A stretch of 5,320 nt of DNA from a virus (lineage: Duplodnaviria; Heunggongvirae; Uroviricota; Caudoviricetes). The stretch's first letter is position 1. Every line of letters starts with the position of its first letter. The stretch lies in IMG/VR virus record IMGVR_UViG_2537562194_000011. One strand, 5' to 3'. The notes under the pieces are model-generated. The model was not told where the DNA came from, ran no database searches, and saw only the letters and a list, made by a program, of their open reading frames with translations. A program made the position numbers and the translations under genes. Shown here piece by piece: positions 1,948 through 3,258 of this stretch.

Positions 1948-3258
1948 TCATTCTCCTGTTCTGCCTGTATCACTGCCCACTTCATCCAGCCCCTTAACAT
2001 CCTGCCACGGCCCGTCACCAAACCTGACCTGCAAATGCCGAAACAGCCCCTGAACCTGTGTGGCATCTTTGGGGTCAAGAAAGGTCAGTCCGGTGATGAG
2101 CGCACCATCTGTATCCGGGAACCAGCCATTGCTGTTTGTCTCAATAATGTTTCCCGGCCCCAGACGGAACCGTATTTGCGTCTCCCCCGGGTCGCCCTTC
2201 GGCCCCTGAGGTCCGGTTGCCCCCACCGGGCCAGCCGCACCTGTTTCTCCTTTCGGTCCCTGTGGGCCTGCCGGGCCTGCCGCACCGGTATCTCCCTTTG
2301 GACCCTGAGGACCTGCATTTCCCGTCAGACCGGTCTCTCCCCGCTCTCCCCTGTCACCTTTGGCCCCTGCGGGACTGCCGGACCAGCATCACCTGCGGTC
2401 CCCGTTCGCCGGTTGCCCCGACAGGGCCGGTGTCACCGCGCTCTCCCTTATCACCCTTCGGCCCCTGAGGACCCGCGGGCCCCTGTTCCCCCTTTGGCCC
2501 GGGAGGTCCACCACGGTGGGGATTCGGTTTACGGCCTCTTCCGCCGCTATCCTGCTTTGTTCCGCTGACTGTGCGCTTTCTGCTGACTCCCGGGCTTTTT
2601 CTGTTGCGGTCGTTGCATCCCTGGCTGCATTACCGGCTGCACTTTCTGCCGTCTTTCTTGACAATTCAGCTTCTGCTGCACTTTGTGATGACTCACTGGC
2701 TTTTTGAGCGGCCGCAGAAGCTGAGGACGAGGACGCATCCTCTGACTGCTTTGCAGCGGCTGCACTTTCTGCCGCCTGCCGGGCTGACTCCGATGCCTCC
2801 CCTGCTGAAGTGTCAGCATTTGCAGCGCTCTCTTCTGCCTGACTGGCTGATATGCCGGCATTCCTCGCTGACGTCTCCGCCTCTCCGGCATTCTTCTTCG
2901 CCTCCTCAGCGTGACGCGCCACCTCTTCCACCATCAGTTCAAAACGGCGCAGTGCCTCCGGCCGGACGTCACCCTCCGTCATGGCACCGAGAAAATCATT
3001 CAGCGTACCGGGTCGGGAATCTTCATACACGGTGATGGTCCCGGCATGTGACGGCGGGAATCCTTCCACCAACAGAATGACGCTGTACTGACCGTACTCA
3101 ACGTCCATGCTGTAACGACCGGCTTCATCCGGATTTTCAGAGGCCACCGCGTTCACCACCACCGTGGCGCTGTTACGTCTGGCTTTCAGTTGAATGGTGC
3201 AGTTCTCTACCGGTTTTCCTGTGCCGTCTTTCAGCACACCTGAAATCTTTACTGCCAT
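1948..3258 (-). pseudogene. stf: Side tail fibre protein, lambda Stf family with collagen-like Gly-X-Y tract; reading frame interrupted three times as sequenced
   Basis: N-terminal ORF 2389..3264 (likely true start ATG 3256..3258 giving MAVKISGVLKDGTGKPV.NCTIQLKARRNS) matches the conserved Stf N-terminal domain from memory, followed by an Ala/Ser/Glu-rich low-complexity segment (about 2530..2919). Gly-X-Y periodicity then runs in a different frame over 2393..2509, a third frame over 2376..2393, and back in the original frame from 2367 to 2179, continuing into the C-terminal domain ORF 1948..2226 (stop TGA 1948..1950). Restoring one base at each of three sites gives a single ~437-codon ORF. 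As sequenced the N-terminal ORF ends at TGA 2389..2391. Confidence 0.75.
2179..2509 (-). repeat. Collagen-like Gly-X-Y triplet repeat tract (about 37 triplets) inside the tail-fibre gene
   Basis: Hand translation of the minus strand: 13 perfect triplets [39 protein letters not shown] over 2393..2509; GDA GPA over 2376..2393; 21 triplets [63 protein letters not shown] over 2179..2367. GC-rich and internally repetitive at nucleotide level. Confidence 0.75.

Follow-up and report, generated by a model that had tools for sequence, protein, structure and literature searches.

The window analysed here, a stretch of 5,320 nt, covers the whole of contig AEZV02000045.1 from the draft genome of Escherichia coli JB1-95 (GCA_000194355.2), as identified by an exact look-up of its frameshifted Lom product. 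Every gene in the window lies on the minus strand, and J, lom, a side tail-fibre gene and a small Phage_fiber_C gene are found in synteny (Table 1). AEZV, a draft of the clinical O111:H- isolate JB1-95 (PMC6036999), is credited to the J. Craig Venter Institute (JCVI; PMC3359367); our search of the literature for its sequencing platform yielded JCVI as the source, the sole detail named. The nearest complete genomes are those of 95NR1 and 95JB1, with 99.6% identity over the fibre gene and 99.0% over the window. These are two O111:H- isolates from the Adelaide outbreak of 1995, whose genomes were finished with PacBio data and had their indels fixed with Illumina reads and Pilon, 30 to 42 leftover indels being corrected (PMC6602927). 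The same study judged phage tail genes too repetitive for trustworthy SNP calls and lists the Illumina reads of 95JB1 as SRR954273 (PMC6602927). Serotype, name and near-identity suggest that JB1-95 is 95JB1 itself or belongs to the same clone.

Table 1. Genes of the 5,320-nt window and features of its tail-fibre gene (positions in the window; in the motifs, the bracketed base is the one missing from the window)
Feature	Position	Strand	Description
J (tail tip), 3' part	3989..5320	-	Open reading throughout
lom (Ail/Lom outer-membrane protein)	3319..3921	-	G6 to G5 frameshift, run 3443..3439
Lambdoid side tail-fibre gene	1948..3258	-	ATG 3258, natural stop TGA 1950..1948; 1311 nt here
Break (a)	2508..2509	-	GTGGT[G]GGACC; GG for GGG; native frame left after Val codon 2511..2509
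Break (b)	2396	-	GGACC[G]GCAGG; one G where relatives have GG; native GER GPA GDA
Premature TGA	2389..2391	-	Ends the as-written 289/291-aa product; last 39 residues out of frame
GTC (Val) at a collagen Gly position	2373..2375	-	Genuine; also in finished 95JB1 and 95NR1 copies
Break (c)	2361..2362	-	GGGCC[G]AAAGG; G lost between C2362 and A2361; native CCG AAA = Pro-Lys
Small 89-aa Phage_fiber_C gene	1678..1946	-	ATG 1946; three indels
nleC (type III effector zinc metalloprotease)	259..1245	-	Intact

The fibre gene of intact relatives measures 1314 nt; its 437-aa product comprises an N-terminal PF08400 phage_tail_N domain (1-133), an Ala/Ser-rich region, a collagen tract (251-360) and a PF06820 Phage_fiber_C domain (363-426). 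The finished genomes of 95JB1 and 95NR1 both have an unbroken gene of this length (1314 nt, 437 aa) at the corresponding nleC-linked locus. The gene as deposited in the window departs from this plan: its open reading frame stops early, after 291 codons counted from GTG 3264 or 289 counted from ATG 3258, the start used in relatives. PF08400 phage_tail_N is present in the window product at residues 1-133 (E = 1.5e-68), and the 289-aa product lacks both the collagen Gly-X-Y tract and PF06820 Phage_fiber_C, both of which are present in the repaired form. The original prediction was thus correct in naming a tail fibre with a collagen-like tract whose product, as written, has lost its C-terminal domain.

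The course of the reading frame can be followed by translating the minus strand in three frames. The native frame runs up to ...NRIPTVV, where the last two codons, GTG GTG, occupy 2514..2509; 13 Gly-X-Y triplets then continue in the second frame, from 2509 to 2393, and are followed by GDAGPA in the third, after which the original frame returns and stays open to the natural stop. This bears out the earlier account of a Gly-X-Y register that passes through three frames and comes back to the first. Global alignment of the fibre gene with the closest complete genomes gave exactly three 1-nt deletions, each the loss of a minus-strand G, for a net change of -3 nt; beyond these, the gene differs from those genomes by just two substitutions. 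One missing G per junction had been proposed, and the alignment agrees. The three breaks span 148 nt, and the original frame is regained from break (c), at 2362/2361.

The alignment moves two of the three junctions from where they had been placed by eye. The first, near 2508, had been located correctly and is break (a), where all 124 of 124 related copies have GGG. The second had been put at CAG-GTGAT, 5 nt from the true break (b), and the third at GCAG-TCCC, 13 nt from the true break (c); the sequences expected there, CAGGGTGAT and GCAGGTCCC, are absent from all 123 related loci, as is CCAAAGGGT, a further variant considered for site (c), and the alignment-based sites were preferred. The misplacement of the third junction involved reading GTC at 2375..2373 as a broken Gly codon, when it is a genuine Val codon common to the finished relatives. 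Among these, GTC is found in the 95JB1 and 95NR1 copies at 2.40 and 2.20 Mb, and most other copies have GGC (Gly). Even with two sites moved, adding one base per site restores a single frame in alignment with the relatives, as had been anticipated: with the three G's replaced, the gene becomes a 1314-nt open reading frame of 437 aa that differs from the 95JB1 protein at 2 residues (435/437 identical) and has 36 full Gly-X-Y triplets and the start of a 37th at residues 251-360. The underlying gene is of a known and ordinary kind, a side tail fibre of EHEC prophages. The repaired protein has the same domain order and synteny as the EHEC lambdoid side tail fibres WP_086893287.1, H0004 of VT1-Sakai and L0121 of 933W; these are intact, whereas the product deposited in the window stops at 289/291 aa, short of the collagen tract and Phage_fiber_C.

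The three deletions are found in this contig alone among the sequences searched. The 5115 copies matched by a 211-nt query across the three sites come from 712 complete E. coli genomes (median 8 per genome), and the best of them is 98.6% identical to the query. This value is precisely what three gaps in 214 alignment columns amount to, so none of the 5115 has even one of the deletions. Deletions (a)-(c) are absent from all 9 copies of the segment in 95JB1 and all 11 in 95NR1, and no site lacks its G in the three 95JB1 copies retrieved, which lie at 1.38, 2.20 and 2.40 Mb. Gaps at these sites were present in 0 of the 95 to 124 related copies that could be aligned. The broken junction (a) had no exact match in genome, viral and metagenome collections, nor did the broken (b) and (c) in the viral collection; the unbroken form of (a) was matched at least 120 times. 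At the protein level, no fusion of the native N-terminus to the out-of-frame tail exists among 5.8 billion protein clusters, and the five matches to the out-of-frame peptide were off-frame open reading frames on intact DNA, with no fusion. No other record with the deletions was found in the collections ecoli_genomes, phages, genome_contigs, viral_contigs and metagenome_contigs, or by exact-protein look-up. A homologous protein ending at the same position, which would have spoken for a real truncation, was likewise not found, and the truncated protein itself is not on record.

The fibre gene is one of three adjacent broken genes, and the only one that returns to frame. Between window positions 4739 and 1, comparison with the nleC prophage of 95JB1/95NR1 gave ten differences, namely seven indels and three substitutions (4365, 3150 and 1986). 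All seven indels and two of the three substitutions fall within the 1.5 kb from 3443 to 1901, and six of the seven indels are deletions. The indel in lom shortens a G run from six to five (3443..3439) and yields a 200-aa product (EIH90936.1) whose C-terminus is wrong. In the small fibre gene an A is missing between 1939 and 1938, which creates a TAA at codon 4, an A has been added at 1924, and another is missing at 1902..1901 (AAA to AA): three indels within 38 nt with a net change of -1, from which the frame is not regained. That the frameshifts in the fibre gene cancel had been offered as an argument against decay; the argument is weak, as the neighbouring genes are uncompensated, and the return to frame is unremarkable in itself: one-base deletions, once there are three of them, always total -3.

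The excess of indels, seven against two substitutions, runs opposite to the natural mutational spectrum of E. coli. In E. coli mutation accumulation, small indels arise at about one fifth of the rate of substitutions and are concentrated in runs (PMC6116381); with this ratio of 1/5, the binomial probability of at least 7 indels among 9 events is about 1e-4. The indels are moreover confined to the block that is common to nearly all related prophages, at about 1600..4000 of the window, where an EHEC genome has some 9 to 11 near-identical copies of the segment from J through lom and the fibre gene to the small fibre gene. The low-copy nleC part has no indel and is 100% identical to the finished genomes over 1551 nt, and many O111 genomes match it at 100%. 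The flank is not strictly single in this clone. 95JB1 has a second copy of nleC (5297..7596 of our locus L127, at 2.20 Mb) that is interrupted by IS1203 and lies behind a near-identical J-lom-fibre block, so that the nleC flank is two-copy in the 95JB1 clone.

Set against the finished genome, the contig proves to be a mosaic drawn from paralogous prophages. Of the 15 discriminating sites in its end at 5320..5237, all agree with the nleL-linked prophage that 95JB1 carries at 1.38 Mb and one agrees with the nleC prophage; the J block at 5075..4742 is of a third, widespread J type, present at 99.4 to 99.7% identity in over 400 genomes, with 95JB1 not among the matches listed; and outside these two stretches the contig corresponds to the nleC prophage. 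The mosaic at the J end is either an assembly chimera or a recombinant, and such a pattern would be expected of a repeat-bounded contig built from the reads of several paralogues.

We conclude that the frame breaks are real in the deposited sequence, yet very probably an artefact of sequencing or assembly in a multi-copy prophage segment, and not a biological feature. They would have arisen when single bases were wrongly dropped from the consensus of AEZV02000045.1, a short draft contig. Three other draft-derived contigs with 1-nt indels in this tract, described below, point the same way. The deletions are absent from independent, high-quality assemblies of 95JB1 and 95NR1, which appear to represent the same clone, and the variant is unique among its homologues and differs from them mostly by indels (7 against 2 substitutions). 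The original prediction had favoured consensus error over decay or programmed slippage, and the restriction of the deletions to one draft contig supports that preference. The situation resembles the indel errors by which draft assemblies are known to split genes, above all in multi-copy prophage regions: the lesions are unique to one draft, lie in a short, repeat-bounded contig in which the neighbouring genes are also split, and are absent from the later finished and polished genome of what is probably the same clone. It differs from that familiar situation in that the presumed errors go beyond long homopolymers and cluster tightly.

This clustering, with three indels in 148 nt of the fibre gene and three in 37 nt of the small fibre gene, bears on how such errors could have come about. 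A systematic cause is needed, because a deep consensus should eliminate random read errors, which would also not be expected to lie so close together. We considered pure homopolymer miscalling and rejected it: all 23 runs of at least four bases in the gene are intact, as is the A7 run at 1936..1930, and the runs affected are of three, two and one. The earlier attribution to short C/G runs therefore holds in part only, in that G runs of 3, 2 and 1 are the ones affected, while every one of the 23 longer runs (at least 4) was spared; site (c) and the untouched G5 and A7 runs are at odds with simple homopolymer miscalling. Misalignment of mixed reads from paralogues was a second candidate, and it is not supported at the fibre sites, around which the three 95JB1 copies are identical. 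The density of variable columns near the seven indel sites is not clearly above background, and the cluster in the small gene sits in a more variable stretch. At least one of the indels, that in lom, could be real or derived from a paralogue, since the G5 form occurs in other assemblies. Errors in the reads or in the consensus remain the probable cause of the fibre deletions.

The lom variant has a record of its own. Its G5 product belongs to a 195-member cluster at 90% identity whose 200-aa members come from Logan assemblies and complete genomes, and G5 is found in 2 of 82 IMG/VR copies. Unlike the fibre deletions, lom G5 may be a real or recurrent allele, for example of some paralogue. The added A of the small fibre gene is also present at one IMG/VR locus, L091.

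The main alternative is that the JB1-95 stock or its lineage truly carries the three fibre deletions together with the lom and small-gene indels, in a defective prophage segment that is decaying; we consider this unlikely, though deserving of some weight. Side tail fibres are dispensable in lambdoid phages, as the stf frameshift of lambda PaPa illustrates, and EHEC prophages are frequently defective. The frameshift of laboratory lambda (PaPa), which separates orf-401 from orf-314, was reportedly described by Hendrix and Duda in 1992; the VT1-Sakai homologue of our fibre is annotated as 'similar to lambda Orf-401'. As in the window, a lambdoid side tail-fibre gene is there split by a single-base deletion, and since the gene is dispensable the lesion can persist. 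The lambda lesion, however, is one verified mutation found in every copy of that strain, whereas here there are three events, in one draft only, that the finished genome contradicts. Frame-breaking indels are also not peculiar to JB1-95, being found in 16 of 101 related IMG/VR copies, and one of them, a G5 to G4 deletion at gene position 768, is common to three genomes (loci L031, L040 and L067). The recurrence of the lom G5 variant in independent assemblies counts in the same direction.

Several observations weigh against this alternative. None of the three deletions recurs in any other copy searched, and these copies include those of 95JB1 and 95NR1, two finished isolates of the outbreak clone; the ratio of seven indels to two substitutions reverses the natural spectrum; the long runs at which natural slippage happens are spared; and the flanking sequence has no other decay. 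An independent sequence of the strain or of related isolates with the same lesion was not found. We nevertheless leave genuine mutation a small residual probability because of the non-homopolymer sites, the clustering, the identical paralogues and the recurrent lom G5. It is more improbable still, to the point of being very doubtful, that the JB1-95 stock truly has seven clustered indels, six of them deletions, in 1.5 kb of one prophage. If it did, this would represent a localized burst of frameshift mutagenesis, as opposed to ordinary decay or sequencing error, for which error-prone (Pol IV-type) synthesis accompanying repair or recombination between paralogous prophages would be a candidate.

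A further alternative, that full-length fibre is made by three successive -1 ribosomal frameshifts or by transcriptional slippage at the three sites, we regard as effectively refuted, because the arrangement is not conserved: no homologue has a multi-frame arrangement, and in all relatives a single frame covers the tract at these sites. The net change of -3 does return the gene to its original frame, open to the natural stop, and at site (c) the native Pro-Lys-Gly would be remade if tRNA-Lys slipped by -1 on CCA-AAG-G, from AAG to AAA, a fit that looks coincidental. Against this, there is no X_XXY_YYZ heptamer in 2560..2340, re-pairing is impossible at sites (a) and (b), no run is long enough for transcriptional slippage, Rfam has no match in the window, the local RNA fold is no better than those of shuffled sequences (z = -1.3), giving no sign of a stimulatory structure, and three inefficient events in series would leave almost no product. 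Programmed -1 frameshifting of the kind used by IS3-family transposases, such as that of IS1203, an element annotated beside the second nleC copy in 95JB1, shares with the fibre gene only the need to join two frames: it takes place at one site, in contrast to three in series that have neither slippery heptamer nor stimulatory structure nor conservation. For practical purposes recoding is excluded.

There is, then, no new biology in the frame breaks, and attributing them to consensus error carries a caution: in early EHEC drafts, short repeat-bounded contigs have single-base indels that cluster in the multi-copy J-lom-tail fibre block. The resulting split genes give rise to spurious database entries for a 'truncated tail fibre', a 'Lom variant' or small open reading frames, for example EIH90936.1 from AEZV02000045.1, and such contigs should be checked at the level of reads before they are used to study prophage tail genes for pseudogenes, phase variation or recoding. 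The same tract is disturbed in three further short IMG/VR contigs from draft isolate genomes. One (L019, about 3613..4764) has three +1 insertions within 58 nt that sum to +3, so that the frame is restored and stays open; another (L040, 2546..3860) has four 1-nt indels in the collagen tract; and the third (L077, 1262..2568) has two, both in G5 runs. The small fibre gene downstream gives the locus one more regular feature, a tandem of Phage_fiber_C domains, the first at the C-terminus of the fibre (1948..2226; Pfam E = 3e-34) and the second in the separate 89-aa gene (1678..1914; E = 1e-36), an arrangement that is kept in every relative examined.
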